Shown: piece after piece, positions 832 to 41,359 of the stretch
Layout: every line of letters starts with the position of its first letter
Position numbering within the stretch: the stretch's first letter is position 1
Source: Mactra antiquata
Lineage: Eukaryota
Direction: 5' to 3'
Length of the DNA: 64,000 nt
Assembly: GCA_047288015.1 (NCBI GenBank)
Contig: CM103826.1
Location: 3,917,510 to 3,981,509 of the forward strand
Translations under genes and position numbers: made by a program
The notes under the pieces: generated by a model
Databases searched by the model: none
What the model saw: the letters and a program-made list of their open reading frames with translations, nothing else
What the model was told of the DNA's origin: nothing

Positions 832-933
832 ATCAGCCTGGTATATCCGTGGTTGGATTACATTATAATATAAATCAACCAATGAATGGCCTAGAACATG
901 GACAAGTTGGTGTTGATATAAATACTAAAACTG
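832..933 (+). CDS. Gene 1 (CBM39-like + GH81 beta-1,3-glucanase) exon A: CBM39-like module part 1 (phase 1 in, phase 1 out). The upstream signal-peptide exon is not in the window.
   Basis: Acceptor ttacag|atcag and donor ctg|gtaagt. Translation DQPGISVVGLHYNINQPMNGLEHGQVGVDINTKTG. It is 95% nt-identical to gene 2 exon 2, and the phase is consistent with exon B. Confidence 0.75.
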
Positions 934-979
934 GTAAGTTTGCGTATCAGTCCCATGCATTTTAACATTGAATTTTACA

Positions 980-1202
980 GTCTACAGACGATAAAGTGAC
1001 CGATTAATATGACCAATGCTATGTTGTTAATAATTAGACATGTTGTTAAATTATATTTTCTATAATTATTTTTATTTCACGTTTTGGTACGTAAAATATG
1101 GTCAAGTGGTTAAAATCAAGTTATTTATTATTATCCATGCTTTGTTATGAAAAATCTGCTTGACAAAAACACAATTCAACTTACCGCCTGTGGACTATGT
1201 CG
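980..1202. mobile_element. MITE family with TIR GTCTACAGACGATAAAGTGAC, copy in gene 1 intron A/B.
   Basis: Ends gtctacagacgataaagtgaccg ... cttaccgcctgtggactatgtcg. Related copies at 33968..34196, 55200..55640 and 27893..27995 (partial). Confidence 0.65.
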
Positions 1203-1883
1203 TATATAACATAAAAACTCATTGTTACTGTAAAGCAGGTAACTGTCAGGTTGAATATACCACGAGATCAAAAGCTACAATACTAATCGAATAATGTAAA
1301 CAAATATCCTAGACTGAAGTAAAAAGTGGTTGGAAGTATCTTTAAGTTATTTCTTTGTCAAATTTCATTACACATAGACCAGTCAACGTAGAAAATTGTA
1401 AGCTTTCTACATAGTATCGAATCTTCACTCCAAGTAGCGTAGTTTTCTCAAAATTCGAGAAAAGCGCTTGACAATCAACGAAATATGCCGAACAAATGAG
1501 TAAAAGTAAAAAAGAACACTTAAAGCTGTAGAAAGGTCAAGGTTTTTTCGAATGCTTTGAAAGCCACGCAGCTGGTGGGAAAGATCTAATCCGTCGTGGA
1601 TATTTACATTTGCATTTGAATTTCTTTGTACTGCTAAAGGGAGCTGACATGTGAAATTTGGTACATCAATCCAATTTCTGTTACAATACAATGTACTTAG
1701 AAATACATTGTTAAGTTTACCATGAACCATTGGATGACGCAAAATATGCTAACATATCATGAAACAGTATGAAGTGTGTCCATGTTGTAAAACTGTTTGA
1801 TTAGAAAATGATATATTTATTTAACATGGGGTTCAATGAAAATTATAAACTACTCATTATTCATTTCATATTGATTGTTTCAG

Positions 1884-2174
1884 GAAATGCATGGGTACAT
1901 GAGAACCCTAAAGTTGCTGTAAAACCAGGAGATACTGTAAACTATTGGTATATTTCTATACAAAATGGAATAGGAAATCTGGTACAAGATCAAACATGGA
2001 CTCCTTCCGGAAATACAGTTACACCAACAGGAAGACCAACAACAACAAATACACCTACCGGAAGAACAACAATAGAAAGTACAACTTCCGGAAATACACC
2101 AACCGGAAGAACAACAATAGAAAGTACAACTTCCGGAAATACACCAACCGGAAGTACACCTACCGGAAGTCCTG
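1884..2174 (+). CDS. Gene 1 exon B: CBM39-like module part 2 plus an expanded Thr/Pro-rich linker.
   Basis: Acceptor tgtttcag|gaaatg and donor cctg|gtcagt. Translation GNAWVHENPKVAVKPGDTVNYWYISIQNGIGNLVQDQTWTPSGNT followed by TPTGRTTIESTTSGN repeats. Paralogous to gene 2 exon 3; phase 1 in and out. Confidence 0.75.
2051..2140 (+). repeat. Two near-identical in-frame 45-bp tandem units inside gene 1 exon B (15-aa TPTGRTTIESTTSGN repeat), flanked by degenerate copies from 2021 to 2173.
   Basis: Units acacc(t/a)accggaagaacaacaatagaaagtacaacttccggaaat at 2051..2095 and 2096..2140 differ at one position. Confidence 0.9.
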
Positions 2175-3107
2175 GTCAGTTGTTTCATATTTAACCCAAT
2201 CATCTGGTACTAATTACTGCAAACGTTGAAATAATTAATTCAGTTCGTACAATATTTTGAGATATTTACAGTAATTAAGCCAATTTGTTTACTGGCGGCG
2301 AAATTTGTCATATGTTCACATAACTTCTATTGTTTTCAAAGATTAAACACAATATACCGTAGCGTTACGAAGTAGATAAATAGAGTTTTATGTTGATACA
2401 TACTAGGGGGGTTCTATTTCGTCACCCTAAAGCAATTAATGAAATTAATGATGAACTTGGAATTGTAAACTACAGAAACATTTATTTTATTAGTAAATGA
2501 TTCATTAATATATTGTTCTATCAACGTTTTTAATTTATCTCGGAAAGAAACATAAGCATTCACAGTATAGAAGTCAACGGTGTAAATGCAGACGACCGTC
2601 ACAGTCTTGAGCATGCCCGTATGTCGTCACAGCAGAATAAAACTTAAAGTTTGTCCACTTACTTCATGAAAAGCATTCTGTTTTACATTAATGAGGAATG
2701 CTTAGGCCTATTACATTTTAAAAATCATATTTCTACAACTATATAAAAATGAAATCGTCAAAATCGTCCATTTGTAATGTTGACATATTTGCCGTAAGCA
2801 TAAACACGTAACTGGTGATAGTTTGTCTCTGCCCACAAAATAGCTCCGCCTAGCTGTTATATTTCGGACTAAAATTGGTGTTCAAGAATAATTCAGGGAA
2901 TTCTAACTTTACAACACTTAACACAGCTGTTTAATTTAAATACGATTGAGGTAACGAAATTAAGACCGTGACGAATTTAGGGTCTCGTACAACGAAATTC
3001 GGGACTTTTGATAGTCAACGTAAGCGTAGTCGAGATAAAGCGAAATGACTGTATCAATATATTATGTAAAACTGTATGAAATGGTATCTTTACCTGTAAA
3101 ATTTCAG

Positions 3108-3329
3108 ACACCGTCTTACCCAGAGATTGCGTGCCACTAGAGAATGGCGTATTGGACCAATTTGATCCTATGTCTGTCTTTCAACCAAACTCTGAGATAG
3201 GAACAAAACAACCACCAGTTAAAGTTAGGCCGGATATCCGTCCTAACAGACCATTGCCTACACAAGCTTTTTTCACGTCACAGCTGAAGTCTACTGGCGC
3301 TGGACCAATGGTTTTATGGCCATATTTTG
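3108..3329 (+). CDS. Gene 1 exon C: start of GH81 domain A.
   Basis: Acceptor atttcag|acacc and donor tttg|gtaagt. Open frame DTVLPRDCVPLENGVLDQFDPMSVFQPNSEIGTKQPPVKVRPDIRPNRPLPTQAFFTSQLKSTGAGPMVLWPYFG. This resembles the GH81 N-terminal PLPT..FF....W.PY region. Confidence 0.65.
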
Positions 3330-3904: not shown

Positions 3905-4200
3905 TAGGATTTTCGCCGTTTACCAACACTTTTTTATTTTTTTTTTATTTATGGCCACCGGCTCACCTTACCAGTTTTCTTACTAGACTCTTTTTTTTGA
4001 TCCAGTGTTCGCTTACCCTTCCCCAAGGAGCCGACCTCTTCCCCTGTACGAAGGAAAATCAACATTATTGTCGCCATTCCATAGAATGGTATGGCATGTC
4101 AGGAATCGAACCCAGATCGAGGATCACGTGCACGTGCTAACCACTGCACTCAGCCGCGGCAATGTGGTTCCAGTGGAAGTCTTGATCATCCCCTGATTTA
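3905..4200 (-). mobile_element. tRNA-derived SINE, family B (tRNA head; body ggttatacccttccat..ttcgacaataatgtcgattttcctcc..ccttgtggaagggtaagcgagtactggtta..ggccgccgtaaaatgaccataa..gttaacacggcgttaaacccaacc; A-rich tail).
   Basis: Minus orientation with the poly-T at its left end and head ggaatcgaacccagatcgaggatcacgtgcacgtgctaaccactgcactcagccgc at the right. Confidence 0.75.
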
Positions 4201-4563: not shown

Positions 4564-4758
4564 CTTCAATGGACAATGAAGGTATAACCTACGATGCCTT
4601 TGAATTTAGAAGATTTATGGATCCAGAGAGAACTATTCTAGCAGACCAACAATCTATGTCAGAAGATGGGAAACCTTGGAATCGTTTGTTTGATCTTGGT
4701 ACCAATTTCTTTCAGAAAGTCTCAGGACCTGATGGAAATCCACTGTCAGGATTTTACG
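4564..4758 (+). CDS. Gene 1 exon D.
   Basis: Acceptor tatag|cttc and donor ttttacg|gtaaaa. Open frame ASMDNEGITYDAFEFRRFMDPERTILADQQSMSEDGKPWNRLFDLGTNFFQKVSGPDGNPLSGFYG. Phase 1 in and out. Confidence 0.65.
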
Positions 4759-5061: not shown

Positions 5062-5171
5062 GTAAAAGTGGTGTCAAGGTCGGTATTGAAGGAAGTGCTG
5101 AACCGGAACTTGGAGACTTTGGTGATCTCTATGGTAACTTTAAATTCACCGGAAGTACTGGAACTCTTGAG
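5062..5171 (+). CDS. Gene 1 exon E.
   Basis: Acceptor tatcccag|gtaaaag and donor cttgag|gtaatt. Gly-rich open frame GKSGVKVGIEGSAEPELGDFGDLYGNFKFTGSTGTLE. Phase 1 in, phase 0 out. Confidence 0.55.
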
Positions 5172-5540: not shown

Positions 5541-5673
5541 GTACCACTTGTTAGAGGATCAATCTTACTGACACATATATTTGATAATGCTAACCCTGTG
5601 ATCACACCTTTCTGTTTGGACAATATCAATGGTGGTGACTCACAGAATTTTTACTGTCCACTGAACCCTGCAG
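5541..5673 (+). CDS. Gene 1 exon F.
   Basis: Acceptor attatttcag|gtacc and donor cctgcag|gtatat. Translation VPLVRGSILLTHIFDNANPVITPFCLDNINGGDSQNFYCPLNPAG. Phase 0 in, phase 1 out. Confidence 0.65.
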
Positions 5674-6609: not shown

Positions 6610-6834
6610 CCACTAATGGAGGAAGTGGTTATCTTAGTGGTGAATGTACTGGTTCAACTCTTACAATCACACTTCATAATACAAGACCTATAACAGATAT
6701 AAGTTTGATACAATGGGCTGCTAACACGGCATCACAGTATGGTTCAAGTCATGCGATGCATAATTGTGATGAATCACATTGTCGTCTGCTGGAGAATGGA
6801 CAAAGACTTGATATTACCGTCCCTAACGCACATG
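6610..6834 (+). CDS. Gene 1 exon G.
   Basis: Acceptor aaatgcag|ccact and donor cacatg|gtaagt. Open frame ATNGGSGYLSGECTGSTLTITLHNTRPITDISLIQWAANTASQYGSSHAMHNCDESHCRLLENGQRLDITVPNAHG. Phase 1 in and out. Confidence 0.65.
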
Positions 6835-10235: not shown

Positions 10236-10496
10236 GTAAAGGTCATATCACGGCGGTCAGCCACCTAACTCATCGATCCTGGAAATACTAAATCTCTGGA
10301 TTTAGCTGTTAACCAGTTACTAGACGCATACTTCCGTCCGTGACTGACAACTGCCCTACATGATTTAGAATGGGAGAATGGTCGTAGAAATTTTTTCATG
10401 ACCAAGCCTCACAAAAGTATGCCCCGCCCGGGAATCGAACCAACGACCCCTCGGTCAGTAGACTTGTGCGCTTCAGACTGAGCTAGTCAGGCGGGC
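10236..10496 (-). mobile_element. SINE family A copy (minus orientation).
   Basis: Reverse complement of the family A consensus from tail ggtcatatcacggcggtcag to head ..gagctagtcaggcgggc. Confidence 0.85.
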
Positions 10497-11558: not shown

Positions 11559-11830
11559 GCACGATGTATTTCGCAATAAATTACATAGCTAATTACGTGA
11601 TACCCGGAGACTGGATAAACAAACCACAAGAAGTCACGTGTACCACTAGTGGTAAGAGAGAATCAAGTGGTATGGAATCTGATTTAGCAGAAGGGCGCGT
11701 CGGTAATCAAGCTATCAGACGCGAAAAGAGAGGGGTAACTGACATTGGATTGAATGCCACTTGTGATGCATCCAATACGATTAAGATCGCCTTGAATTTA
11801 GCTGACTACAGTAATATTAAATCTGAAAAG
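11559..11830 (+). CDS. Gene 1 exon H.
   Basis: Acceptor tgtttcag|gcacg and donor gaaaag|gtaggt. Open frame GTMYFAINYIANYVIPGDWINKPQEVTCTTSGKRESSG...IKSEK. Phase 1 in, phase 0 out. The 4.7 kb intron upstream carries repeats. Confidence 0.6.
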
Positions 11831-12700: not shown

Positions 12701-12828
12701 ATTCAATACGCTGTTGAACATGCAAACAACTGGGGTAACCCACCTCCTATGAGGAATTGTGGATCAATGTGCACTATAAGTGGAAACGTCGTAACCATCC
12801 GAAAACAGATGAATTCGAATCATTTAAA
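12701..12828 (+). CDS. Gene 1 exon I.
   Basis: Acceptor ttgttgacag|attc and donor ttaaa|gtaagt. Translation IQYAVEHANNWGNPPPMRNCGSMCTISGNVVTIRKQMNSNHL. Phase 0 in, phase 2 out. Confidence 0.6.
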
Positions 12829-13198: not shown

Positions 13199-13393
13199 GC
13201 CCGCCGGCTAGATCAGTCGGTAGCGCACAAGTCTACTGATCGAGGGGTCGTGGGTTCGATCCCCGGGCGGGGCATACTTTCGTGGAGCTTGGTCATGAAA
13301 TAGTTTCTACGGCCATTCTCCTTCCTACCACTGATTCTAAATCATGTAGGGCAGTTGTCAGTCACTGACGGAAGTATGCGCCCAGTAACTGGT
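13199..13393 (+). mobile_element. SINE family A copy (3' truncated).
   Basis: Head gcccgccggctagatcagtcggtagcgcacaagtctactgatcgaggggtcgtgggttcgatccccgggcgggg plus core. Confidence 0.85.
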
Positions 13394-13921: not shown

Positions 13922-14175
13922 ATTTGCCATAAATGTAATAGGACACATTGTACTACCATTTCAAAATTGGATCAGTCAACCACTTGAAATAACATGTGGA
14001 ATTGGTCAAGTAGTACGCTATGGTAGTTCAGGACTAGAAATTGACAACGAAAACGTAGGAACGACTACGACGAAAAAAACAACATCTACCACAACACAGG
14101 CAGTAACATCACAGCCTCCAGAGACACAAGGAACGACCTCTCATCAACCTATTACTCAACAACCTACAACCACTG
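13922..14175 (+). CDS. Gene 1 exon J, ending in a second Thr-rich linker.
   Basis: Acceptor attacag|attt and donor cactg|gttggc. Translation KFAINVIGHIVLPFQNWISQPLEITCGIGQVVRYGSSGLEIDNENVGTTTTKKTTSTTTQAVTSQPPETQGTTSHQPITQQPTTTG. Phase 2 in, phase 1 out. Confidence 0.6.
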
Positions 14176-23049: not shown

Positions 23050-23114
23050 AACACTGATGTGAGGACTTCGAAGTGAAACTAAGATAGAACTTCTGTGTTT
23101 GAAATACAATCATA

Positions 23115-24695: not shown

Positions 24696-24718
24696 ATCAT
24701 CATCATCATCATCATCAT
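24696..24718. repeat. (CAT)n microsatellite.
   Basis: atcatcatcatcatcatcatcat. Confidence 0.9.
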
Positions 24719-25400: not shown

Positions 25401-25454
25401 ATCTAGCGTCCGTGTTGCGACGTTTAGCGTCTAAATACAGTACTCGGATGGATC

Positions 25455-26490: not shown

Positions 26491-26726
26491 TATTTTATAT
26501 GGTTCCTGAACATTTGATGGGCCCCTCTATTGTAAAGCCCACTATTTGAGAAAATCGTGGACAGCGTGTGGGGTCATGGGATCGAATCTTTATGATCTTG
26601 TAGGAACCTCTTGGACTGTTGATAATCGTAAATACATGTACACACATGGTTGACCTTTATTTTACTGAAGTAAACGTATATGACCGAAGTTGGCCGAATT
26701 ATTTTTACATTGCTTAACTCAGACCA

Positions 26727-27470: not shown

Positions 27471-30400
27471 TATATGACTTAATGTCATTAAAACGGTCCA
27501 ACAAGAAAAGGTGTAACCTTATGTACTACGAATAAACTCTAAGCAAATGGTTTTCATATGATCATGGCATCAGCAGACGACCGTGTCTATTAAATTCAAT
27601 CTTGTTTCAATTTATGTTTATTTCACGCTGCATATTCTCTGGGAATTATTTTCAAATGATGCATTATTTTTGCATCAATAGATCCAGAAAATAATTAATT
27701 AGATTCAAAAGTAAAAGTACAGTAAACTTACCTGGTTGTATTACATATAGTATATAATATTTAATCTAAGGCCCCAGGGCATAAAATAGGATTTATATAT
27801 ATACAATAATACAGGTAGGCAAGGGAAACAACCCAAGCTAAGGTACAATGTTTTTACGTTTTACTTCATTTTACGTTGAGCTACATAAGATATGACATCG
27901 AGTGGTTAAAACACGTGCTTTAATCTGTGTTTGGCATTGAATATCTGTTTATAAACAGCGTTCAACTTATTGTCTTTGGACTATATTTATAATATATTCA
28001 ATCTCGTGCACCAGAGGTTATCGTGCGTTGGGTCGAGAACCTTCATAACATCTGGTGTGCGAGAATGCGTATACAGTGAACATGTGTATAATCCAAAGAC
28101 GATATAGTCACCTCTCGGGGTCCGCACATAATGCATCTTCAAAGGTATGAAGGAACCTCATTTAATCTAAAATGCAGAAAACAATCATATAATGTTCAGA
28201 GCTGTTTCCTGTTAATTCCAAATAGGTCTAAATTACAAAGAAAAGTGTACATCTTGTGGATATCTCATCCAAAAATAGTAGTATTGGATCTTACGACGGT
28301 CTGTGATAAAAAACACTTGTGAGCAAAGTCCTTCTGTTTCTTCAATTATGGGGTAATTGCATGTGGTGCGTTTCCTATTATTACCATGTTAATATAACTG
28401 CTTCATTATTTACACCCTCAAAATGATTTCTGATCTTGTATAAAAATGACAAAAATAATTGATGTTTTGACGAATCGCCGAAACATTATTCCATTATTTG
28501 TACGAACTTGTAACGTAAAAAAATTCTACAGTTGATATAATCAGGGATTCGCAATCATGTACATTTATATCAAATTTCAACAGTTGTGGATGATAGTGCA
28601 GCTCATTCTGATAGTGAGTATTACATGTTCAAATATTAATATTCACATGTATTTTATAACAACACGCTTCACTTTCGCTTAAGTTTCCAGAAAAATGAGT
28701 TGTGTTCGACTGTTTAGGTGTTATGAATAAAAAATAATCTTGGATTTTTAATTTACATCTGTGACGCATAAAATGTATAAGTCGTCGATAGGCGAAAATA
28801 GCCGAGGAATCCGAACAAACGTGTTTAACGTGTATCGTGAACCGGGATTGTCAATTTGAGCCCAAACGAAGCTTTCTATCGTGTTCGTGTATCGTGCGTA
28901 TCGTGCGTATCGTGTGCGTTCATCGTGTGTGTATCGTGCGTGTATCGTCCGTTCCGTGTGACAACTTGCGCAACCCGAGTACTGTAAAAGTGTTTGAAAC
29001 TAACCGAAACGTTAGTTTTGTTTACTAGGGTTACAATTATGCCAATTGCTCAAGGGTGACAGGGTGCCATCACTCAGATTCTCAATCAGCACTACTCAAA
29101 GATATTGTAACTGCATTAAAACCTTGTGGAGACGCAAGTGCACGGTACTGCTGGACTATTTACATTTTTATTGCACAAAAACTGTTAAATCGAATTGTTT
29201 TCATGCTCAGCCGTCTTATAAATGTTTTCCGTAATTTATCATAAAGAAAAATACGAGTCTACTAAGCTTTTTTTAAAAAGGACCCCCTTTTCTACGAAAT
29301 AGCCACTTTCTTTAACTTAAACTTTGAAAGCAAACAGTTTAACAATGTATCTTTGTGTCTAAGCTTGTTATATTTAGTTGAATTTGACGTTAAAAGATCG
29401 TTTTCTAATCTGCTGTAAATGAATATACCTTAGTATTGTGGCTTTAAAATTGTTTTTATCTTCGGGTCATCACTGCTGATACTTGTCGAAATATATCGGT
29501 GTAAGGAAATACTTTATCGGATAGAGTAACCAGTGTTAGAATACAAGGCAAATTTATTTACTTTGTCCGTTTATGTCCAACATAAGCCACTGTCGTGGTC
29601 CATTACGCTGGACTTTGCTCAGACGACCAGGGGCAGATTCCCGGCCATGTACATTCGACAATAATGTCGAGTTTTCTCCGTGTAGGAAGATGTTGTCGGC
29701 TGATTGGTTGAGCAAGTACACATTAGGTATAGTAAGGAATTCAGAAAAAAATGGTGAGACGAGCTGGACACACTCAGCTGGTCACCATACGTAAATGACT
29801 GTAAACATGTTGACAAACGACGCATAATCCAAATAAACAAACAAACAAATACAGTGTACGTCAAATGTAGATTAGTAATAGTATTTTAGGTTTATTTTAT
29901 AAAAGGGGATCCATTGTCCAGTGTGGATTGAAAATATTGGATATATAAACATACAATACTATCGTATAAAATTGTTAGCAATCGGACCATTTAATTATTT
30001 AGTCCTAAATGAAATAACTATTTTGATCTCAGTACATACGTGTATGTACCCAGAGGTATTACTAATTTGTATTTAATCTTACACTAATCTATACACCTGG
30101 CCCTTCAGGCAATACATCAAAAGTTTTGTTTATGAAATACAACACTAGTAAAGTAATCATGTTTTTGTTTGTTTATTTAGAAACAAGTGTCATACCCTAA
30201 TTTGTCATAATTAAAATGTTGTGGCGTTTTTAACAATGTTTGTTTCTGTTATTAGTTCAGGGACAAATCAACAATTTTTCCAAGGGGGGTTGAAGTAAAG
30301 TTATTTTTATGTAGGGTCCGTACGCTCAAGTTATCATTTGGATACACGTTTTCAACCGTTTGTTATCATGAGATTCGACCATTTAAGGAAGGAGGGGGGT

Positions 30401-31204
30401 CAGGATCCCCCAACCCTCCCTACTTGGATCCGTCACTGACATCTGATTCTGTTTCCCTATATAATGAATAACAGTGTTGATTAGTATTTCATTAAAACTC
30501 TGAAGCTAGTTGGGATTCAAGAAATATGGTAAGTAAACAAATTTTTTTTAAATATATTCTATAAAGAAAATTTATATGTTTGTACTTTATTATTTATTAT
30601 ATTAAACTATTATTTTAATGGTCCTTTTGTGTTATATATCTTACTGATAATTTATATGTAATATGATACCTTGATTTTATTATTAGCTACATATTTCATA
30701 TAGAATATCAGATCATAAAGACGTATCATCTATAAGAAAAATGTTATTATCGCTGTCTGTGACAAGTTCATTCAACAGCACAAGTAAGTTGCTAGGTTAT
30801 CAAACGTAGCAACCAGGTTGGCAACCTGAGAGTCTATATGTAAAACCGACCGAGCCATGCATGCTACGTAAATTATTATATTAACGTTGAACAACTGCGT
30901 TATGTATGTACAGTGTTGTTTCTAACTCAAACTGACTTAAGTCAGAAGTTAAAAGTCATTCTCGTGAGAGAACGAATCTGGTGAAAGCTGTAATTTCCAT
31001 GCTCAGGTTTGATGAATTATTTATTATGTCCATTATTTATACAAATTGGATGAATACAGTATTTCATGAATATATTTCATTTATCAGTTGCAGCAATAAT
31101 TTCCTACCAGCCTCCAAAAACATTGTCAATGTTACTCGATGTTATACTGGAATGTTGGCAGTAACGAAAGATGTGCCTATAGCCTCTTTTTGGCAACTTA
31201 GCAT

Positions 31205-31220
31205 TTTCTTATTTTTAAAC
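31205..31220 (+). promoter_or_regulatory. Candidate TATA-like element (tatttttaaac) about 30 bp upstream of the gene 2 ATG. An upstream non-coding exon (acceptor ttttag just before ATG) is not excluded.
   Basis: AT-rich TATA-like string only. No other support is visible from sequence. Confidence 0.15.
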
Positions 31221-31243
31221 GTTCTTGTTCATGATTTTAGAAA

Positions 31244-31355
31244 ATGAAGTTATCACACATTGTGTCGACCATTGTCTGCTGGTTTGTGACAGTGTCAGCA
31301 CAAAATGCTGAGTTCAGTTTGTTACAACCCCAAGGATTGAAATTTTCACTGCCAG
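31244..31355 (+). CDS. Gene 2 (CBM39-like + GH16 beta-1,3-glucanase) exon 1: start codon and signal peptide.
   Basis: ATG at 31244 is preceded by an in-frame TAG two codons upstream. Translation MKLSHIVSTIVCWFVTVSAQNAEFSLLQPQGLKFSLP(G) has a hydrophobic core and an AQ-type cleavage site. Donor ccag|gtaaat; phase 1 out. Confidence 0.8.
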
Positions 31356-31749
31356 GTAAATTAACATTTATACATGTATTAAAGTATTCTTCTTCGAAAA
31401 TGATAGTGTTGCATTAGTTACAGTTCATGGTCCGAGCTTATAAAACATGAGAACGAATTCCATGCTCAAAACTCAGTTTTGTGACCAAGCTTCATTCTTT
31501 AATGACATAAAACTATGGACTTATTCACTTATTCATCGCAGTTTAGAAAAGTAATGGGACTCTGCTTCCAAATATTATTAGGCTTTCTTGCATTGATCCG
31601 TTATTTACAATTAATTCTCTTGAGAATGAAACTGAATTTTGGGCAGGGAGTTCGTTCTCAAGTTTTACAACCTCGGATCCGGTTGTTGTTTTTTCTCACA
31701 TTTGTACTGAAATCATAGAAAAAAGACCATAGCTACCTACTGAATGTAA

Positions 31750-32012
31750 ACGCAGTCCGTAGTGCGTCTGTCTTTGAATACAGGGGTCGTAGGTTCGATT
31801 CCCGTACGAGACCTTCATACACTCTTACAGTTTGGTCATGAAATACTTTTTACGGCAATTCTCCATCCTACCGCTGTATGGTGTATAGCAGTTAAAAGTT
31901 CCGGTTAAAAGCTTAGGTTTAGGGATCTAAGCATCTCCATTGGTAGCGAATATGTCGACTGACCGCCGCAATATGACTGAAAAATTGTCGCAAAGTGGCG
32001 TAAAGCACCATG
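31750..32012 (+). mobile_element. SINE family C copy in gene 2 intron 1.
   Basis: Core and family C tail present; head partly truncated. Confidence 0.8.
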
Positions 32013-32091
32013 ATATATTTAATTTACCAAATATTGATTGAATATAAATATGTATAATTATATTTATTTCAATTTCTCTCATATATTCCAG

Positions 32092-32193
32092 ATCAGTCTG
32101 GTATATCTTTGGTTGGATTACATTATAACATAAATCAACCAATGAATGGCCTAGAACATGGACAAGTTGGTGTTGATATCAATACTAAAACTG
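32092..32193 (+). CDS. Gene 2 exon 2: CBM39-like module part 1.
   Basis: Acceptor attccag|atcag and donor ctg|gtaagt. Translation DQSGISLVGLHYNINQPMNGLEHGQVGVDINTKTG. Paralog of gene 1 exon A. Confidence 0.85.
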
Positions 32194-32639
32194 GTAAGTT
32201 TATATGAACTACAGCATATTTTATTTGCTTTCAATATTATTGTTTAGCACACGGGCGATATGGTTAATTATATTACCAATGCACCGTTGCTATTGATAGA
32301 ATTGTATTAAACTAAACCAAATATCTGTTGGCCCCAGTGCATTCACAATTTTTCAACAATAAATTTAACATATCCTTCCGCACCCTATTTGAATAGCTAA
32401 TAAATGTTCGCTCAATTATTAGTCATTCGCCACTTTAGAATAATTTGTTAACTAATGGTTGCACTAAACTTGTTTTTGAGCTAAGCTATAGGCAAATAAA
32501 TTAAGCTGTTTGTGTTTTCAATGGAACTATTTTAGGCGATATCAGGAAGAGAAGTAAGAGAAAAAAAACAACATTCAAAATTTCACGTACCAGATCCGAA
32601 ACAATACCTACGACTGATGAGTCAGTCTAGCTAAACTAA

Positions 32640-32800
32640 GCTCTTCCCATGTCCATAACACATACCTCGTCTTCTTCGTTGAATACAGTCCCCAGGGCTG
32701 TTCGTAGTACCTTTTGAATTTTTAATGCAAAGTTCTCTTTTGCGTGGGACAGACACAACTCAAAACTTGACTTTTGATTTTTATCCACAATCATCGTTTA
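32640..32800. repeat. Dispersed repeat with a second copy at 42095..42255 (..gttgaatacagtc...ttgaatgcaaagtt.tc.tttgc.tgggacaga.aca..tcaaaacttg..).
   Basis: About 150 bp with about 80% identity between the two loci. Confidence 0.65.
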
Positions 32801-33374
32801 GGCGATGACAAATATCTCGTTTTAGTCTATAAATTTTAACAACACGACTCACTGAGCTCGCTAAACATTGTTCAGACATTCATATAGCATCAAAATATTA
32901 TTATGCTAAGCCCTGTGTGTTTACGACAAGAACTAATTAGTGTAAATTGTTGTGTGCTTCGCCAGTGTTTTGCCTCGCGTATGTAGCAAAAACCCATGAA
33001 ACTTGGTGGACCTCCTACGAATCCTTGCGGATTTATTCGTCGTATGAATTGGTCGAAGTGTTCTAAATGGCTTCATAATTATCAGACTGATTCTTTATTT
33101 GCTTGCGTTTATCGGCACGCCAACACAAAAAGGTCATGTCGCTATCAGACTGATCAGCTTATAGAAAATCTTTTACACATGGTCATGGATTATACAGAGT
33201 CCCATTCTCGGAACTCGGAGGTTATTAAAACATAGTTGATCTTGTTAGAATCAAGTATTTTCTAAGTGAACCTCTGACTTGTCTTGTGAGAATGACGTCC
33301 TTGACGTGGTTCATTATTTTCGTCTCTAATGTTCATAATAAACTTATTATTTATTATTATATTGATTGTTTCAG

Positions 33375-33509
33375 GAAATGCATGGGTACATGAGAAAACT
33401 AATGTCGCTGTAAAACCAGGTGATACCGTATACTTTTGGTATCTTGTTGTTAAGAATGGAATAGGAAGTCTGGTAAAAGATCAAACATGGACGCCTCCTG
33501 GAAGTACCG
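33375..33509 (+). CDS. Gene 2 exon 3: CBM39-like module part 2.
   Basis: Acceptor tgtttcag|gaaatg and donor taccg|gtcagt. Translation GNAWVHEKTNVAVKPGDTVYFWYLVVKNGIGSLVKDQTWTPPGSTG. It resembles the insect betaGRP N-domain (CBM39) motif [28 protein letters not shown]. Confidence 0.85.
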
Positions 33510-33967
33510 GTCAGTTGTTGTCATATATTTTACTATCTCAGCTTGAAATAATTACGACAAATTACACGAGTACTAAATTTATTCAATTATAACAAGCTTT
33601 TGCGAGAAAAATATTAGGTCAATTTTATATACCCTTCCATGAAAACTCGACAATAGTGTCGATTTTCCTCCATTAATAAGGTATATGGAGCAGTAGGCTA
33701 GGCTAGGATTTCGAATCTATTGTCCCGAAGGGATTGCTGATTCGATTGAAAATGTTTTGTTGCTTCTGGAGATGTACTGTCACGATATGACTTAATTAAT
33801 GTTAATTAAAACATCCACGTGGCACTTAATAGACTATAATGTCAGTTTACATAGGGCTCAATTTTTCAGCTAACGCAATATTAACCTTTTTGTTAGCTGT
33901 GGAATTAAGTGGTATATAAAACTTATAAGAATTATTTTAATGAAATATTTTTCACTGTTCGTAGGTA

Positions 33968-34196
33968 TGGTCCGCTGACGCTAAAGTGGCCGATTGTAAT
34001 GACCAATACTCTGTCGTTATCATTGATAGGGAAAGTTGTTAAATCATATTCCATGACTAGTTTTATTTTAAGTTTAGCTATATAAGATATGGTCGAGTGA
34101 CTATAATCACGTGATTTATTTTTAATACGTGTTTCCTTATTGAGTATCTGATTATAAACAAAGTCCAACTTATCGTCTTTGTACTATATTAGAGTA
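33968..34196. mobile_element. MITE (GTCTACAGACGATAAAGTGAC family) copy in gene 2 intron 3.
   Basis: Ends tggtccgctgacgctaaagtggccg ... caacttatcgtctttgtactat. Confidence 0.6.
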
Positions 34197-34305
34197 TTAC
34201 AATAAATCGCCAATATTCTAAAGGAACAGGCTACAGAAAGATTTACACATACAAGAAGTAAATTCGGGTGTTTATAAACGATTTATGTTTCTATGGTAAC
34301 TATAG

Positions 34306-34493
34306 GTCCAATAACAACATCAACAAAAGGTCCAACGGCAACAACAAAAACTGAAGGCCCCACCCAACCACCACAAACCACGTCTAGACCAACATCAAAT
34401 CCGTCTAACTACCCTCGTTTGATATTTGAAGACAATTTTGACACCTTGAACCTTGATGTATGGGAACATGAGATTACTGCCGGTGGTGGAGGA
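34306..34493 (+). CDS. Gene 2 exon 4: Thr/Pro linker plus start of the GH16 domain.
   Basis: Acceptor ctatag|gtcc and donor ggagga|gtaagt. Translation GPITTSTKGPTATTKTEGPTQPPQTTSRPTSNPSNYPRLIFEDNFDTLNLDVWEHEITAGGGG. Phase 1 in, phase 0 out. Confidence 0.85.
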
Positions 34494-34821
34494 GTAAGTT
34501 AATTATATATTTACTCTGTAAATTTGTTTTATACTTAGTCGATAGCGCAGCCGACTGTCTTCTTCTTCTATGGTAATGGCTATCAGTCATTACTGACTAC
34601 ATTATGACCATGCGTGGGGTGTTAGTAAAAGTGAGCTACCAGACCCCCTCAGCTACTAAATCCATCAAGGGGATACTGGTAGTGTGATAAAATAGGAGCA
34701 AAACCTAAACTTCTTAACAACCTTAAAATGCCCTTAAGTCTACAAATACACTACTAAGTGCAGAGAGAGAGAGAGAGGTTGGCAATTGTTAAAATCAGGA
34801 TAAAAAGAGTGTGTTCTATTT

Positions 34822-35078
34822 AGGGCTGCATCAATACGGGGGCGTCGGTTTGATTCTCGGAATAGCCTAAATTGTTTCGTGGATTTTGGTTACCAACTGC
34901 TTTCTACGACTATTCTTCATCCTACTTCTGTATCAAATAGGGCAGTTGTCAGTCGCTGGCTTAGTACTGGTTAGATGCTTAGGACTAGAAATCTAAGCAT
35001 CTCCAGCGATTGTGACTAGGTCGACTGACCGCCGCAATGTGACTGAAAAATTGTCGGCAGAGCAGCATAAAGCATCGC
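34822..35078 (+). mobile_element. SINE family C copy in gene 2 intron 4.
   Basis: Head gggctgcatcaatacgggggcgtcggtttgattctcgg, core and family C tail. Confidence 0.75.
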
Positions 35079-35160
35079 ATTCTCGGAACCCAGAGGTTAT
35101 CAAGACATAGTTAGATCGACTATGTCTTGATAACCTCTGGGTTCCGAGAATGAAAGCATC
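35078..35160. mobile_element. Small palindromic MITE (31-bp perfect inverted repeat ttctcggaacccagaggttatcaagacatag / ctatgtcttgataacctctgggttccgagaa). Other copies at 22836..22890, 33196..33295 and 35696..35762.
   Basis: Perfect hairpin-forming inverted repeat with an 11-bp spacer; dispersed copies. Confidence 0.7.
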
Positions 35161-35260
35161 GTAAACCAACCGTAACTCAAACCGTTTTAAAAACCGTTTA
35201 TAGCTTATACACATTTCTTCAATATATATCTCTGGACATGATAGTTTTATCTTTTTTCAG

Positions 35261-35335
35261 AACTGGGAATTCCAGTATTACACTAACAATCGTAGTAACA
35301 GCTATGTTCGTGATGGAAAATTATTTATTAAACCA
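35261..35335 (+). CDS. Gene 2 exon 5 (GH16).
   Basis: Acceptor cttttttcag|aactgg and donor aaacca|gtaagt. Translation NWEFQYYTNNRSNSYVRDGKLFIKP, a classic GH16 laminarinase N-terminal motif. Confidence 0.85.
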
Positions 35336-35799
35336 GTAAGTATATTTCTTATGTAACATATTTTATTATGATAGTTAAAACTGACTATAATGGTAATATT
35401 CATTCAATTTCAATGAAAAGGTGTTGTTTAGCGAGCAATTGTCCAATATGAGTGCTGGTGATTCCATACGCACTGAACTGTCCTGCACGTTACCCAAGGG
35501 TTCTTGTCGTCTACCATTTACTCTGTGACTAATCATGCATATCATTCGAGATTGCTCTACTTAAAAACGCATTTCTACAAATTTCCTGTCAACCTGTCAC
35601 AAAATGCATTTCCTGCCACTGCATGTAGGACACTTTTGCTAACAAAGCAAGCACGCATGTGTGGTTGTAAAAAAAAGACCCTGCTATTATCTTTATCACC
35701 ATTCTCATAACCCAGAGGTTATCCAAATAAGAATTGTGATAGTCTCTAGGTGCGAGAATGATTTTCACAGACAAAATTCTGTCTAAAGCCGCTGTTGCC

Positions 35800-36045
35800 T
35801 GAGTCATAAATACTAAATCCCGTGTGTCCACGGTCCAATGATAAGTACGACGGTCTTCTAATCTGGCGATCCGAGTTCGATTACCGGCCGTGGCAGGTCG
35901 TACCCTTTCGTGAAAATTCGACAATAATGTTGATTTTCCTGAGTATATGGTGTAATGTCGACTCCTTGTGGAATGGTGAGCGAGAACTGGTACAGAAAGT
36001 AGTCAAGGAAAACATATTGATTGGGTGAGTCGGTCGCTGTTAGAA
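35800..36045 (+). mobile_element. SINE family B copy in gene 2 intron 5.
   Basis: Head ..cgagttcgattaccggccgtggcaggtcgtaccctttcgtgaaaattcgacaataatgttgattttcc plus body. Confidence 0.75.
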
Positions 36046-36157
36046 AATGAAAAATAAAAGTTGATAAATGGCGTAATATCCAAATAAATTTAATTTGATT
36101 TAACAAATATACTTAAGTTTACAAAAAGATATTGAACTTTCAAATATTTTCTTTCAG

Positions 36158-36224
36158 ACATTTACGGTGGATACGCTGAATCGTGGACCTGATGGTTTAA
36201 CACAAGGGTCTTTAGATTTATGGG
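36158..36224 (+). CDS. Gene 2 exon 6 (GH16).
   Basis: Acceptor ctttcag|acatt and donor tatggg|gtacgt. Translation TFTVDTLNRGPDGLTQGSLDLW(G). Phase 0 in, phase 1 out. Confidence 0.7.
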
Positions 36225-36239
36225 GTACGTAGGAATAAA

Positions 36240-36570
36240 GTTTAATTTGCCACGAAAATGCCGTGATATTATTTAGTAAATTAGTAATGATGAGTTATTA
36301 CTAGTTAATTAGGAATTATGTATTATTTTTAGTCAATTAGTAATCGTGTATTATTTTTTGTTAATTAGTAATTATTTTAATTAATTAGTAATCGTGTATT
36401 ATTTTTTGTTAATTAGTAATTATTTTAATTAATTAGTAATCGTGTATTATTTTTTGTTAATTAGTATAATCATTTATCATTTCTAGTTAATTAGTAATTA
36501 TGTATTATTTTTAATTAATTAGTAGTCATGTATTATTTTAGTTGATTAGTGATTATGTATCATTTATTGT
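36240..36570. repeat. AT-rich tandem repeat (ttaattagtaatcgtgtattattttttg plus ttaattagtaattatttta) in gene 2 intron 6.
   Basis: About 49-bp compound unit repeated about 6 times. Confidence 0.85.
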
Positions 36571-36577
36571 TTTGAAG

Positions 36578-36760
36578 GTTCCTTGCCAGGCGATGTGTGC
36601 ACTGGAAATGGTTGGTGGGGATGTCGACGTGATGGTTCTCCAAATAATATCCTCAATCCTATACAGTCTGCTAGATTAAGAAGTTCCCGTGGTTTTAATT
36701 TCAAATATGGTAAAGTGGAAGTAAGGGCAAAAATGCCAAAAGGAGATTGGATATGGCCTG
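36578..36760 (+). CDS. Gene 2 exon 7 (GH16).
   Basis: Acceptor ttttgaag|gttcc and donor gcctg|gtatgt. Translation GSLPGDVCTGNGWWGCRRDGSPNNILNPIQSARLRSSRGFNFKYGKVEVRAKMPKGDWIWP. Confidence 0.85.
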
Positions 36761-36917
36761 GTATGTTTATTAAATATTTATTGTTAATGAATGTCAAGTA
36801 CTAGTATATGATAATTATTATTATATAATAATTATAGAGTTCTAAACTTTTACTTGATATGTTTATAAAATTACAATGTAAACCGATTGGGTTCACTGAA
36901 ATCAAATTAATTAAAAG

Positions 36918-37315
36918 CTGCGGTCGTGACCGAGTGAAAAGAGCGCTCGACTACGGATCATAAGGCCCCATGTTCGAACCCCAGTCGTGGCAGGTTATAC
37001 CCTTCCATTAAACTTTGACTAATAATTGTCTATTATCCTCCTCTATATCCTCCTTTTCCTCCTTTGTCGAATTTTTATAGAAGGGTATTACCAGCCCGGG
37101 TGGGACTCGAACCAGACCCCCGTCGCAGCAGACCAAACTCTTCCATGAAAATCTAATATTTAATATAGATTTTACTCAGCAGAGGGAGAAGTTTTCGGCT
37201 CCTTGTGGAAGGGTAAGCAAGTACTGGTTAAAGAAAAGTGTCCAGGAAATCCGGTTAGGTTAGTCGGCCGCCGTACATAACCTTAACATGTGTTGATAAA
37301 CGTCGTTAAATCAAA
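36918..37315 (+). mobile_element. SINE family B copy with duplicated head in gene 2 intron 7.
   Basis: Two tRNA-like heads followed by the family B body ..ccttgtggaagggtaagcaagtactggttaaag..gttaggttagtcggccgccgtacataacc. Confidence 0.7.
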
Positions 37316-37396
37316 TTTTAAAAAATAAGTTTATTTGGCATCTACTCTGGCAATAAGAATTCCCGTATTAACATGTGGCATGTTTTAAAAAAGACA

Positions 37397-37675
37397 CCTG
37401 CCTGGCTAGCTCAGTCGTTGCGCGCAAATCTACTGATCGAGGGGTCATGGGTTCGATCCCCAGGTGGGGCATACTTTCGTGGAGCTTGGTCATGAAATTA
37501 TTTCTACAGCCATTCTCCCTCCTACCACTGATTCTAAATCATGTAGGGCAGTTGTCAGTCACTGACGGACGTATGCGCTTAGTAACTGGTTAACAGCTAA
37601 TCCAGAAATTTAGCCTTTCCAGGAACGGTGAGTAGGTTGACTGACCTATACAATGTGTTACTACGGCGTTAAACC
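37397..37675 (+). mobile_element. SINE family A copy in gene 2 intron 7, ending about 75 bp before the catalytic exon 8.
   Basis: Head cctgcctggctagctcagtcgttgcgcgcaaatctactgatcgaggggtcatgggttcgatcccc plus core and tail. Confidence 0.85.
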
Positions 37676-37750
37676 CAAAACAAAACACAAAAATTATAAA
37701 AAAGACAATTGCCTTTGTGACACTGATGCTACTTAGTATTGTTTCTTCAG

Positions 37751-37828
37751 CTATTTGGATGTTACCACTAAGAAATGCTTATGGAAAATGGCCAGCATCA
37801 GGAGAGATCGATATTGTTGAAGTCAGAG
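37751..37828 (+). CDS. Gene 2 exon 8: GH16 catalytic exon (ExDxxE).
   Basis: Acceptor gtttcttcag|ctatt and donor cagag|gtaggt. Translation AIWMLPLRNAYGKWPASGEIDIVEVRG. E-I-D-I-V-E is the GH16 nucleophile / acid-base motif and is intact. Confidence 0.9.
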
Positions 37829-38484
37829 GTAGGTACATGCAGTTGTTGAAATTTGTTATACATTTGTAACTCATTTTGTTTGCTTTACTTACCTATTTAA
37901 ATATACGAAGGGAGGTAATACAGCGTCCAGTAGTACTACTACTTAGTTAACTTCCTTACACCAGGACGCGTGCAAATAAACCTTTAGAATGGGTTTCATG
38001 CTTAATACGCAGTTTCGTTCTAAATAGATTTCCTTTTAAACTATTGCAAATTGATTTATTGTTTTCCACTATCAAAAAGGTACTGTTCGAGGACGACAGT
38101 AAGTTTTAAATTTGAGCATAGAATCAGTTCTCAACTGTTATATAACCTCAGATCCAGGATATCATGTACAAGTACTTATTTCATACTCATTGATTGTTTT
38201 ACAAGTTTGTTAAAAAGAACTTAAACATTTACCATCCACGAAGTCTACTCAGTACAAACATATACCCGCCTTCCTTGAAATGAGACCTTAACAATACTAT
38301 ATACCTTATATATATATAAGTTCATCCATTGTAAGACATTGAATCACGTATGTCAGTTGGTATTAATGGACTTCGAAAGCTTTGTATATACATCTATAAG
38401 CCAACGTATTGCCTTCATCAAGATTCTATTCTTAACATTAATTCAAATACATATATATCAAATTGTCTTTTACATTCTAAATAG

Positions 38485-38602
38485 GTAACGCCAATTATCG
38501 TAATACAAATGGTCATTCAAAGGGTATAGACAATGCTGGCAGTACTTTACATTTTGGATCAGACTTCTGGCATAATAAATTTTACAAAGCTCATGGTGAT
38601 AA
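38485..38602 (+). CDS. Gene 2 exon 9 (GH16).
   Basis: Acceptor taaatag|gtaacg and donor gtgataa|gtaagt. Translation GNANYRNTNGHSKGIDNAGSTLHFGSDFWHNKFYKAHGDK. Phase 1 in, phase 2 out. Confidence 0.8.
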
Positions 38603-39386
38603 GTAAGTTTTTGTCTTTAAGAAATTCATTTGTACATATCGAAAGTTGGGAATGGAATTTTGATGTAAAAAGAAACTAATCAACCCATGTCAATGAAAAT
38701 TATGAATACAATTTGTATAATAATGCAGTTCGTTTCATTGGAAGACCAAAGAAAAATGACTTGTTCCTGATTCAAGGGATTTGGCAAATTGAAAATGCTC
38801 TATGTTCATTACTACTAGGGTGTCAGAAACGCAACTGGGTCAAAATGTTCCCTGGGCAATCGTCTTTCAAAAATATCAATTTTTTGGACCCAAATCTCGA
38901 CTTCCATGGTTGGAGCAGAGAAAAATGAGCTGAGAAAACCACAAGTTTTTGCACTTTGCAACCTCGAATTGCATTTCAGACGGCTGAGGGTTCTTGAAAT
39001 GATGCCTAAAGTGCTAGTGGTTTTCACTTAGTTTTTAGAGCCTCAAAGCATGCTAAATTATCACCATTTCGCGCCATTTGCCTGCACCTAACAACTTAGC
39101 AATCAGGGACGCTCTACTCCCTTCATACCAAAAGCACAGCGGAAGACACATACACCTTCCCTCTGGGACTCCTGAGGTTATCGTTTCGTGGAGTGGCCCT
39201 TGAAAAAATGTCAACTTTTTATAAACAACTTTCCATAAGGTTCACAATTTATAAAATCTGTGAATGAATCTATCTACCATAGGCTTTTTATAAATCTGAG
39301 CAATACCACTTTCTCTTCTGTTTTTGTTATTTTCATGCATGATCAATAAATATGCTATCAATGTGCTGTTAATATGTATTTTTTAG

Positions 39387-39458
39387 AATGGCTGACCAAG
39401 GCACTTATGCTGATGGTTTTCATATCTTTGAACTGATTTGGGATGAAAATCACATTAG
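39387..39458 (+). CDS. Gene 2 exon 10 (GH16).
   Basis: Acceptor attttttag|aatgg and donor cacattag|gtaagt. Translation (K)MADQGTYADGFHIFELIWDENHI. Phase 2 in and out. Confidence 0.8.
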
Positions 39459-40583
39459 GTAAGTTAGGCTTACAATTCAAATCAAAATGGTAACAGTTTG
39501 ATGCAGAAAGTATGAATTGTCAGTGATAGTGTGCAATACCATTTTGTGTTTTGAACATTAGACAGATTATGAAACATCTTTCTTAATTAAGAAAAGAGCC
39601 ACATTGTTTGAATACAAACGATATATTCAAATTGCAAAGACAATATATTATATGTACATGTATGTACAATAATTCTACTTAAGGATAAAATTACTATCCG
39701 TGTGAAGAGCTTAGCAATGCTAAAGTTTTTTGTCATCATATGCACTAAACTAAAATAACAGAGGGCGGCACTCCATACATGTGTGGCTGACCTTCGTTTT
39801 GTCCTGAGTTGATGATAGTGTCTCCACTCAATAGTATTGCCTTTCCAGATCCTGTCCGTCTTGTCTCACATTAGACCAAATATCTTTAGATTGTATCTGT
39901 GTATCTCTCTACATGTATTTACTTAAGGACATCTACTGGTCTTACATAGGGTTTACAGGTCCCTATCCTGGTCTTGGTTTTGATTGTCAGTTGAGTTGTG
40001 GAAGCACTGGCTTCCAAAGGGCTTTCACCAGCACGCGTCATGGACTCTATAGCAAAGGGCTTTTTTCTCACCATGTCGTTTATGGAAATTGTTGTTGCAG
40101 CTTCTGTAACCGTCATTTTTAAAGTATCGGGTTGTTAGCCCAATACAAACTTTGACCCAACCTGGAGGACCAGTGATCGAGTCTGGTCTCGACCCATTGA
40201 CTTGTCTGGCTAGGGTGGCCCTACCAGGAGATGAATCTCCCGCAAGCATAGCTCTCAGGGTCGTTAAGACACACGAGCCCCCCCCCTCCACCATTACGCC
40301 AAGGTTGCACTCGTAGGACAGATTTATAGCAGGTCTACTCCATGAAGATGAACGACATTAGCCAGCACTTTTCAAATATAATCATCTCTGTATGGAAGTG
40401 CTGTAAAAATATGTTGGCATTAGGTAAATCATCCGTGTACCAACATGGTTTAAATGTGTTAACTAAATTTTATATCACCCTTATATCACTGTTATGGAAC
40501 AGGCTTTGATAATATAAACACAATACTAACAAAAATGGACTATAGTTAGCTCTGCTTAATTTTCTGGTATTCTACTGTTTCAG

Positions 40584-40716
40584 TGCATCAATTGATGGTA
40601 CAAGAGTAATGAATGTTGAACCAAGACAAACAATGTGGGAATTTGGTGGATTGGATAAGGATAACGTAGATAATCCATGGGTTGGTGGAAATAAAATGGC
40701 TCCTTTTGATCAAGAG
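40584..40716 (+). CDS. Gene 2 exon 11 (GH16).
   Basis: Acceptor tactgtttcag|tgcatc and donor caagag|gttagt. Translation SASIDGTRVMNVEPRQTMWEFGGLDKDNVDNPWVGGNKMAPFDQE. Confidence 0.8.
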
Positions 40717-40920
40717 GTTAGTACAACAGTCTGAGGGGCACCAATGTGGTTTACATACACACTTTGAACATATCAGGTCAAAATTTTCTGCGACTGCGGT
40801 GCAGTGGTTAGCATACTCAATTCCCAACCATAAAATTTGCAACTATTAGGATGACCAGCTTATTCTATCCTTGTAAAACACTTGAGTGCATCAGATAGCA
40901 CAAAAGTGTTTTGGTTTTTA

Positions 40921-41049
40921 TGAAGCTTTACCGCTCTTCTGAAAATAAAATCAGTCATATTGCAATGGTCAGTCAACCTACTCACTGTTTTTGTAGAGGC
41001 TTAGATCTCTAGACCTAAGCTTTAACCAGTAGTAGGCACCTACCTTCAC
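40921..41049 (-). mobile_element. SINE family C tail fragment (minus) in the last intron of gene 2.
   Basis: Tail-only match. Confidence 0.6.
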
Positions 41050-41134
41050 CAATAACTGACAACATTTCTATTGTAAAATAAAACTTTCGTCCAATCAAAA
41101 GCATTATAATTAATGTATCCAATTTTTGTTTCAG

Positions 41135-41359
41135 TTTTTCTTTATACTGAATGTAGCAGTTGGGGGAACCGGAGGGTACTTCCCAGATCATTATCAGAGT
41201 AATCCACCTAAACCATGGAGCGATCAATCTGGCACTGCTGCACGTGATTTCTGGAACGCACGAGGACAATGGTACCCAACATGGAACCCTGATAAGAACA
41301 ATGGAGAAGATGCTGCAATGCAAGTTGATTACATCAAAGTCTGGAAATTAAAACCATAG
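41135..41359 (+). CDS. Gene 2 exon 12: terminal exon with stop TAG at 41357..41359.
   Basis: Acceptor ttgtttcag|ttttt. Translation FFFILNVAVGGTGGYFPDHYQSNPPKPWSDQSGTAARDFWNARGQWYPTWNPDKNNGEDAAMQVDYIKVWKLKP* is the GH16 C-terminal consensus. Confidence 0.9.
   Translation, partial: FFFILNVAVGGTGGYFPDHYQSNPPKPWSDQSGTAARDFWNARGQWYPTWNPDKNNGEDAAMQVDYIKVWKLKP

Follow-up and report, generated by a model that had tools for sequence, protein, structure and literature searches.

Within a 64,000-nucleotide stretch of the Mactra antiquata genome (GenBank assembly GCA_047288015.1, contig CM103826.1, positions 3,917,510 to 3,981,509 of the forward strand; hereafter the window), two genes encoding predicted beta-1,3-glucanases lie in tandem on the + strand: gene 1 (832-23049), of glycoside hydrolase family GH81, and gene 2 (31241-41359), of family GH16. 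Both carry an N-terminal CBM39 carbohydrate-binding module. We conclude that gene 1 is probably (roughly 78%) a lineage-specific CBM39-GH81 chimera made by exon shuffling from the GH16 gene lineage. The shuffling event appears to be recent and, so far, restricted to this species.

The window shows the ~35% GC base composition and split reading frames of a eukaryote, and contains 0 Ns. Exon cores of both genes are 100% identical (tblastn) to two M. antiquata GenBank proteins. The gene 1 protein (P0001, 'hypothetical protein ACF0H5_016633', 1177 aa) has precomputed Pfam CBM39, GH81 N and GH81 C domains, and the gene 2 protein (P0028, '3-glucan binding protein', 497 aa) has CBM39 and GH16. The source is the Coelomactra/Mactra antiquata chromosome assembly, built from HiFi and Hi-C data; its annotation integrates ab initio, homology and RNA-seq evidence, and RNA-seq runs SRR30941538-44, covering seven tissues, exist for the species (PMC11897284). 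An original prediction, made from the letters alone, had described a tandem, same-strand GH81 and GH16 gene pair with a common N-terminal module, and both the domain searches and the catalytic residues agree with it. The peptide motifs it quoted were all recovered by sequence search on the + strand at the expected positions. Its start, 832, is the first base of exon A of gene 1, and its end, 41359, is the last base of the gene 2 stop codon. The spacing it gave, ~31 kb, is correct as a start-to-start distance and incorrect as an intergenic gap, which is 8188 bp (23050-31237).

Gene 1 comprises 19 exons in the window and one exon upstream of it. All 19 have AG...GT boundaries and together keep one open reading frame through to the stop codon; the junctions of both genes were refined against protein sequences, and all are AG...GT. 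The upstream exon 1 encodes MKLSHIVSTIACWFVTASAQNAEFSLLQPQGLKFSLP, comprising the signal peptide and the start of CBM39, and two residues distinguish it from gene 2 exon 1, which makes it a copy in its own right. The mature protein had been proposed to begin with exon A; it does not, since exon 1 precedes the window. The features of gene 1 in the window are as follows.

832-933, + strand: exon A, the second coding exon, CBM39 middle (QPGISVVGLHYNINQPMNGLEHGQVGVDINTKT); phase 1-1; 5 of 102 nt differ from 32092-32193.
1884-2174, + strand: exon B, C-terminal half of CBM39 and Thr/Pro linker; phase 1-1; donor GTCAGT homologous to that of gene 2.
2020-2170, + strand: tandem array inside exon B encoding the gene 1 linker (TPTGRTTIESTTSGN repeats); 15-bp unit x10, 45-bp unit x2.5 (97%).
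2175-3107, + strand: putative fusion intron, 933 bp; likeness to gene 2 intron 3 fades within ~100 nt.
3108-3329, + strand: first GH81 exon (DTVLPRDCVPLENG...), with a phase-1 acceptor; equivalent to the N-terminus of the mature protein in GH81 relatives that have no CBM39.
4564-4758, + strand: GH81 exon, N-terminal region.
5062-5171, + strand: GH81 exon, N-terminal region.
5541-5673, + strand: GH81 exon (PLVRGSILLTH...), N-domain, ahead of the insert.
6610-6834, + strand: part of insert domain 1, an FN3/Ig-like beta-sandwich conserved in animal GH81.
11559-11830, + strand: end of insert domain 1, disordered loop, start of insert domain 2.
12701-12828, + strand: part of insert domain 2.
13922-14175, + strand: end of insert domain 2 and an internal Thr/Gln/Pro-rich linker.
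14604-14813, + strand: GH81 N-domain exon, 210 nt, phase 1-1, skipped in P0001; 83% aa identity to paralog P0002.
15482-15678, + strand: GH81 N-domain exon.
16301-16462, + strand: GH81 N-domain exon.
16799-17000, + strand: GH81 exon, linker domain and start of the C-domain.
18334-18525, + strand: GH81 C-domain exon, containing FYNDHH; its Asp codon 18450-18452 is aligned with RmLam81A Asp475.
19272-19429, + strand: GH81 C-domain exon, with QEESASE at its end; the Glu codons at 19415-19417 and 19427-19429 are aligned with RmLam81A Glu553 and Glu557.
20505-20822, + strand: GH81 C-domain exon.
21485-21592, + strand: GH81 C-domain exon.
22897-23049, + strand: last GH81 exon; stop codon 23047-23049.

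The deposited model P0001 splices position 14175 straight to 15482 and omits the exon at 14604-14813. Restoring this exon extends the product from 1177 to 1247 aa and improves its Pfam GH81 N match, from 37.7 to 50.6 bits. Judged from the sequence, the GenBank model contains a clear exon-skipping annotation error. A separate peculiarity lies at 19044-19306, where a 56-bp tandem repeat (x4.7, 94%) has as its unit a 3' splice site (ttatgttACAG) and the first ~35 nt of the exon at 19272. The repeat places four decoy acceptors ahead of the true acceptor of that exon. As 56 is not divisible by 3, splicing to any of the decoys would change the reading frame.

Domain searches gave scores above the Pfam gathering cut-offs for every expected domain. 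The corrected gene 1 product matched Glyco_hydro81C (PF17652) at 180 bits and Glyco_hydro_81 N (PF03639) at the 50.6 bits given above (cut-off 25.6 for each), together with CBM39 (PF15886; cut-off 25) over aa 20-113 at 82.2 bits. The gene 2 product scored 82.8 bits for CBM39 and 51.8 bits for Glyco_hydro_16 (cut-off 22). The GH81 signature peptides lie on the + strand at 18441-18491 (FYNDHHFHLGYFIYAAG), 19334-19390 (YFPVVRHMDMYTGFSWASG) and 19409-19429 (QEESASE). Alignment of gene 1 with RmLam81A (Rhizomucor miehei, 4K35 chain A) places the Asp of NDHH and both Glu of QEESASE opposite Asp475, Glu553 and Glu557, which we take to be the catalytic residues of RmLam81A. Similarly, the gene 2 motif GEIDIVE aligns to GEIDIME of Thermotoga laminarinase 3AZX, with the E-x-D-x-x-E motif intact. 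Because these catalytic residues align to solved structures, both enzymes look catalytically intact. No biochemical characterisation of any animal GH81 was found in the literature searched.

The two N-terminal modules match the N-domains of GNBP3 and betaGRP with E values of 6e-15 to 5e-11 (3IE4, 6e-15; 3AQX, 5e-13), and we assign both as bona fide CBM39 on these matches. Asp49 of the Bombyx betaGRP N-domain is a glucan-contacting residue (PMC7915573). In each of the two Mactra modules, V-D-I aligns with the insect R-D-I motif, whose Asp may correspond to Asp49. The duplicated module had been described as ~80 aa long and carried by two paralogous exons per gene. A module is indeed shared, and exons A and B do pair with gene 2 exons 2 and 3; the module itself is CBM39, of about 95 aa, begins in exon 1 and spans three exons.

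The product predicted for gene 1 is a 1247-aa protein comprising signal peptide, CBM39, linker and GH81, in which the GH81 part would consist of an N-terminal beta-sandwich with an animal-specific pair of FN3-like inserts followed by an (alpha/alpha)6 catalytic domain. Such a protein would act as a secreted endo-beta-1,3-glucanase whose CBM39, on a flexible linker, binds structured beta-1,3-glucan and concentrates GH81 there. A digestive role on laminarin or chrysolaminarin from the microalgal diet is most likely. An antifungal or immune role is less likely; the specific possibility that the chimera is a newly evolved immune effector, coupling recognition of triple-helical fungal or oomycete beta-1,3-glucan to killing by GH81 in one secreted protein, we regard as unlikely.

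The case for a single gene rests on the junction between exon B and the first GH81 exon. In both genes every boundary of the CBM39 exons has phase 1, and the donor GTCAGT that follows these exons is common to the two, with homologous flanks (...GGAAGTnCnGG|GTCAGTTGTT...). On the other side of the intron, the first GH81 exon has a phase-1 acceptor (3107|3108), so that donor and acceptor phases agree. This acceptor lies four codons ahead of the conserved PRDC and falls where CBM39-less GH81 relatives have just ended their signal peptide. The Mercenaria GH81 ortholog locus has a phase-1 intron within the signal peptide; the ancestral GH81 gene therefore offered a phase-compatible entry point. Residues 172-1247 of the corrected gene 1 product are collinear with aa 19-1094 of P0002, an M. 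antiquata GH81 paralog (ACF0H5_016708), at 84.8% identity with 4 gaps, and the GH81 copy is therefore complete save for its signal peptide.

It is improbable, in our estimation, that the locus instead holds two genes, with exons 1, A and B making a small secreted CBM39 protein by donor read-through (...GSPGQLFHI*) and the GH81 gene having its own unrecognised 5' exon. In favour of this reading, the exon B frame meets a stop (2190-2192) only six codons past the donor, and the deposited model that joins the two parts is partly computational and contains the exon-skipping error noted above. A separate GH81 start is harder to accommodate. An in-frame stop (3077-3079) lies 28 nt 5' of the first GH81 acceptor, directly ahead of the only usable one, and a scan of 2175-3100 returned no plausible exon combining an ATG, a hydrophobic core and a phase-1 donor. 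In the window upstream of 3108 the GH81 part is therefore left without a start or signal peptide. The orthologs and the paralog all have a signal peptide, and this copy would lack one unless spliced to the CBM39 exons. As a possible remnant, upstream of 3108, of the signal peptide that the ancestral GH81 had, we considered 'NGIFTCKIS', which resembles P0002 'AILSLSQVVGS' only vaguely; no conclusion was drawn from it.

The source of the module can be traced to the lineage of gene 2. Gene 2 has 12 coding exons.

31241-31355, + strand: signal-peptide exon (MKLSHIVSTIVCWFVTVSA|QNAEFSLLQPQGLKFSLP, the latter the CBM39 start); ATG at 31244; acceptor TTTTAG at 31235-31240; phase-1 donor.
32092-32193, + strand: CBM39 middle, paralog of exon A; phase 1-1.
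33375-33509, + strand: C-terminal half of CBM39, paralogous to exon B; phase 1-1, donor GTCAGT.
34306-34493, + strand: Thr/Pro linker and GH16 start (exon 4).
35261-35335, + strand: GH16 exon (NWEFQYYTNNRSNSYVRDGKLFIKP).
36158-36224, + strand: GH16 exon.
36578-36760, + strand: GH16 exon.
37751-37828, + strand: GH16 exon with the catalytic motif GEIDIVE (37801-37821).
38485-38602, + strand: GH16 exon.
39387-39458, + strand: GH16 exon.
40584-40716, + strand: GH16 exon.
41135-41359, + strand: last GH16 exon; stop codon 41357-41359.

The exon A region (823-941) is 95% identical in nucleotide sequence to 32083-32201 (E 5e-50), and the exon B region (1852-2016) is 85% identical to 33342-33507 (E 2e-48). 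At the protein level the two CBM39 modules share 85% identity, and neither exceeds 63% to a module of any other species. Synonymous divergence (dS) between them is 0.21 with an omega of 0.41, values that are indicative only, from 74 aligned codons. In a neighbour-joining tree the two Mactra modules are sisters (100% bootstrap) and are nested among GH16-linked modules of heterodont bivalves. The donor was therefore a member of the CBM39+GH16 lineage and the recipient a GH81 duplicate of the Mactra lineage. The proposal of an exon-shuffled module in gene 1 is accordingly upheld by the shared-module phylogeny, the phase-1 symmetry, the common donor hexamer and the GH81 relatives that have no CBM39. 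A Thr/Pro linker follows the module in both genes, as predicted, and its position differs: the gene 1 array sits just before the conserved exon B donor, and the gene 2 linker is in the first GH16 exon. The two linkers are non-homologous and independent in origin.

These observations suggest the following history. A conserved mollusc GH81 gene would have been duplicated, and one copy lost its signal-peptide-coding 5' end. Through a phase-1 intron, this duplicate would then have gained the first three exons of a CBM39+GH16 gene copy, which supply a signal peptide and a complete CBM39; gene 2, 8.2 kb further downstream in the same orientation, would be the full copy that survives. The Thr/Pro linker, which is probably O-glycosylated, may later have grown by expansion of a 15-bp tandem array inside the third of the donated exons. 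A search of gene 1 and the intergenic region found no GH16 exon relics, which would be expected if a whole GH16 duplicate had been invaded, and the junction intron bears no repeat or mobile-element signature. No CBM39 or GH16 exons were found within 10 kb of the Mercenaria GH81 gene; adjacency is therefore not ancestral there.

The same region could be a decaying relic, a partial GH16 5' duplicate beside a non-functional GH81 duplicate, the two joined only by gene-prediction software, but we find this quite doubtful. In its favour, intron alignment between the two CBM39 regions has been lost, save for short exon-flanking stretches; one GH81 exon is preceded by the four decoy acceptors of the 56-bp repeat; and P0002, a functional paralog of the ancestral type, resides elsewhere on the same chromosome. 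Against it, each of the 19 exons is open and has canonical splice sites, none of the catalytic Asp/Glu/Glu is lost, and the 84.8% identity to P0002 extends over 1078 aa with few gaps. The CBM39 omega is ~0.4 with no frameshift, and the 291-nt exon B, repeat array included, remains in frame. An assembly mis-join of the CBM39 and GH81 exons, which has no direct support beyond the fusion being known from a single assembly, is very improbable, given that no N occurs in the window, the junction intron of 933 bp is unique sequence and offers no repeat to seed a mis-join, the gene 1 CBM39 exons differ from those of gene 2 by 5% and 15% in nucleotide sequence and so represent a separate locus, not a collapsed copy, and the assembly combines HiFi with Hi-C (PMC11897284).

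Several points weigh against the chimera and temper the estimate given at the outset. The fusion has been seen in one assembly of one species, and P0001 is the sole source for gene 1 exon 1. This model is itself an evidence-integrated prediction that skips a conserved exon, and is thus suggestive, not proof, of an mRNA. The dS and omega values come from a short sample. A junction-centred protein search with CBM39, linker and GH81 start returned 2 matches and missed P0001; it was probably swamped by the low-complexity linker and is uninformative. That a fused mRNA is made, and that its product is secreted, binds glucan and has the physiological role outlined above, we infer from sequence.

Gene 1 was compared with its GH81 relatives in a 90%-clustered protein library, in which P0001 was the only relative bearing CBM39. 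No other CBM39-GH81 protein emerged from an exhaustive HMMER pass that covered 1.84 billion representatives; this library has a single protein for each 50% cluster, and close relatives such as other Mactridae would be hidden in it. Every other mollusc, brachiopod or annelid GH81 retrieved was without CBM39. P0157, considered as a second CBM39-bearing GH81, was rejected, as it is a 5xCBM39+GH16 protein. No description of a CBM39-GH81 protein was found in the literature searched, and the titles and abstracts of the three works there that name both GH81 and CBM39 are those of carbohydrate-active enzyme (CAZyme) surveys (two on fungal genomes, one on a beetle gut symbiosis), with no sign of this fusion. 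The pair of architectures had been thought undescribed; this appears right for CBM39-GH81, whereas CBM39+GH16 is canonical and mollusc GH81 is already catalogued (PMC7560691).

Among GH81 proteins, gene 1 is collinear with those of lophotrochozoans and deuterostomes (~1050 aa) over the whole mature enzyme, including the two FN3-like inserts and the catalytic residues. Identity to gene 1 is highest for the paralog P0002, followed by Mercenaria LOC123535015 at 64%. Unlike gene 1, these proteins (for example P0002, Mercenaria and the Mizuhopecten 'Endo-1,3(4)-beta-glucanase 1') have their own signal peptide followed directly by 'VP(R/S)DC...' and no CBM39. Among seven listed mollusc genomes, GH81 is present as one copy in four and absent from three, and its expression is mainly in the hepatopancreas (PMC7560691). 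Fungal GH81 (RmLam81A 4K35; yeast Eng1 and Eng2) share the catalytic domain and the conserved Asp/Glu/Glu with gene 1 at ~30% identity, but have neither CBM39 nor an FN3-like insert in the N-domain. Bacillus halodurans BH0236 (GH81-CBM6-CBM56), whose catalytic domain matches gene 1, is a functional analogue for the attack of structured glucan with the aid of CBMs: a GH81 endo-beta-1,3-glucanase with dedicated beta-1,3-glucan-binding modules, a pairing that works functionally (PMC7915573). It differs in being bacterial and in having C-terminal modules of unrelated families, with no evolutionary link to CBM39. A Kunitz/BPTI domain is present in the sea-urchin (Diadema) GH81 relatives P0024 and P0151, so that different lineages have added different N-terminal modules to the animal GH81 scaffold.

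Gene 2, in comparison, belongs to the betaGRP/GNBP/LGBP family (signal peptide, CBM39, linker, GH16 and PF26113), which also includes Meretrix LGBP and insect betaGRP/GNBP3; the Tapes literatus betaGRP is 72% identical to it. CBM39+GH16 proteins are widespread in bivalves, gastropods, annelids, brachiopods, echinoderms, hemichordates and tunicates, usually under the name betaGRP or LGBP. The CBM39 of gene 1 derives from this family and is paired there with GH81, a different fold, rather than with GH16. Gene 2 differs from insect betaGRPs in retaining the catalytic ExDxxE, and it is closer to the digestive mollusc laminarinases (PMC7551256) than to a pure pattern-recognition receptor; mollusc GH16 laminarinases are well characterised (PMC7551256). 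From its sequence features, we read gene 2 as an ordinary, catalytically competent CBM39+GH16 laminarinase or 'beta-1,3-glucan-binding protein'. Its translation equals P0028 exactly save for the first Met. The codon preceding the in-window start is TAG, within the TTTTAG acceptor, and the first Met of the deposited P0028 must therefore come from an upstream 5' exon, a candidate for which is AAATATG|GTAAGT at about 30526. The true start of gene 2 is likely ATG 31244.

Two further features of the window were recorded. A dispersed repeat resembling a short interspersed nuclear element, with the open frame GRGFDSRAGHTFVELGHEIISTAILPPTTDSKSCRAVVSH, occurs in many introns of both genes in both orientations; its copies include the following.

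501-626, 13240-13365, 20106-20231 and 37437-37562, + strand: SINE-like repeat.
4000-4200, 10344-10478 and 17195-17317, - strand: SINE-like repeat.

Downstream, an unrelated multi-exon gene occupies ~47000-54400 on the - strand and, judged by eye, looks as if it encodes a protein of the SLC22/organic-cation-transporter type within the major facilitator superfamily (MRVNLDEVLAQLGNPGRYQIFVFLL...).

The CBM39-GH81 gene appears to be an undescribed combination of known parts in one lineage, its fused protein already in GenBank as an unnamed prediction. It reveals no new enzyme class, mechanism or system, and it flags an annotation error in the deposited model. If the fused transcript is real, the partners of CBM39 extend beyond GH16-type domains, and the locus would be a clean case of recent exon shuffling in an animal, with donor lineage, recipient paralog, a junction of compatible phase and the later expansion of a linker within an exon all still visible within ~40 kb. 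Should the immune-effector reading be true, the chimera would provide the first CBM39 known from outside a GH16 context, and a recruitment of an immune module by a neighbouring gene that can be dated (dS ~0.2). The finding also draws attention to an animal GH81 that is uncharacterised and has its own glucan-targeting module; such an enzyme may be of interest for the processing of laminarin or yeast glucan.

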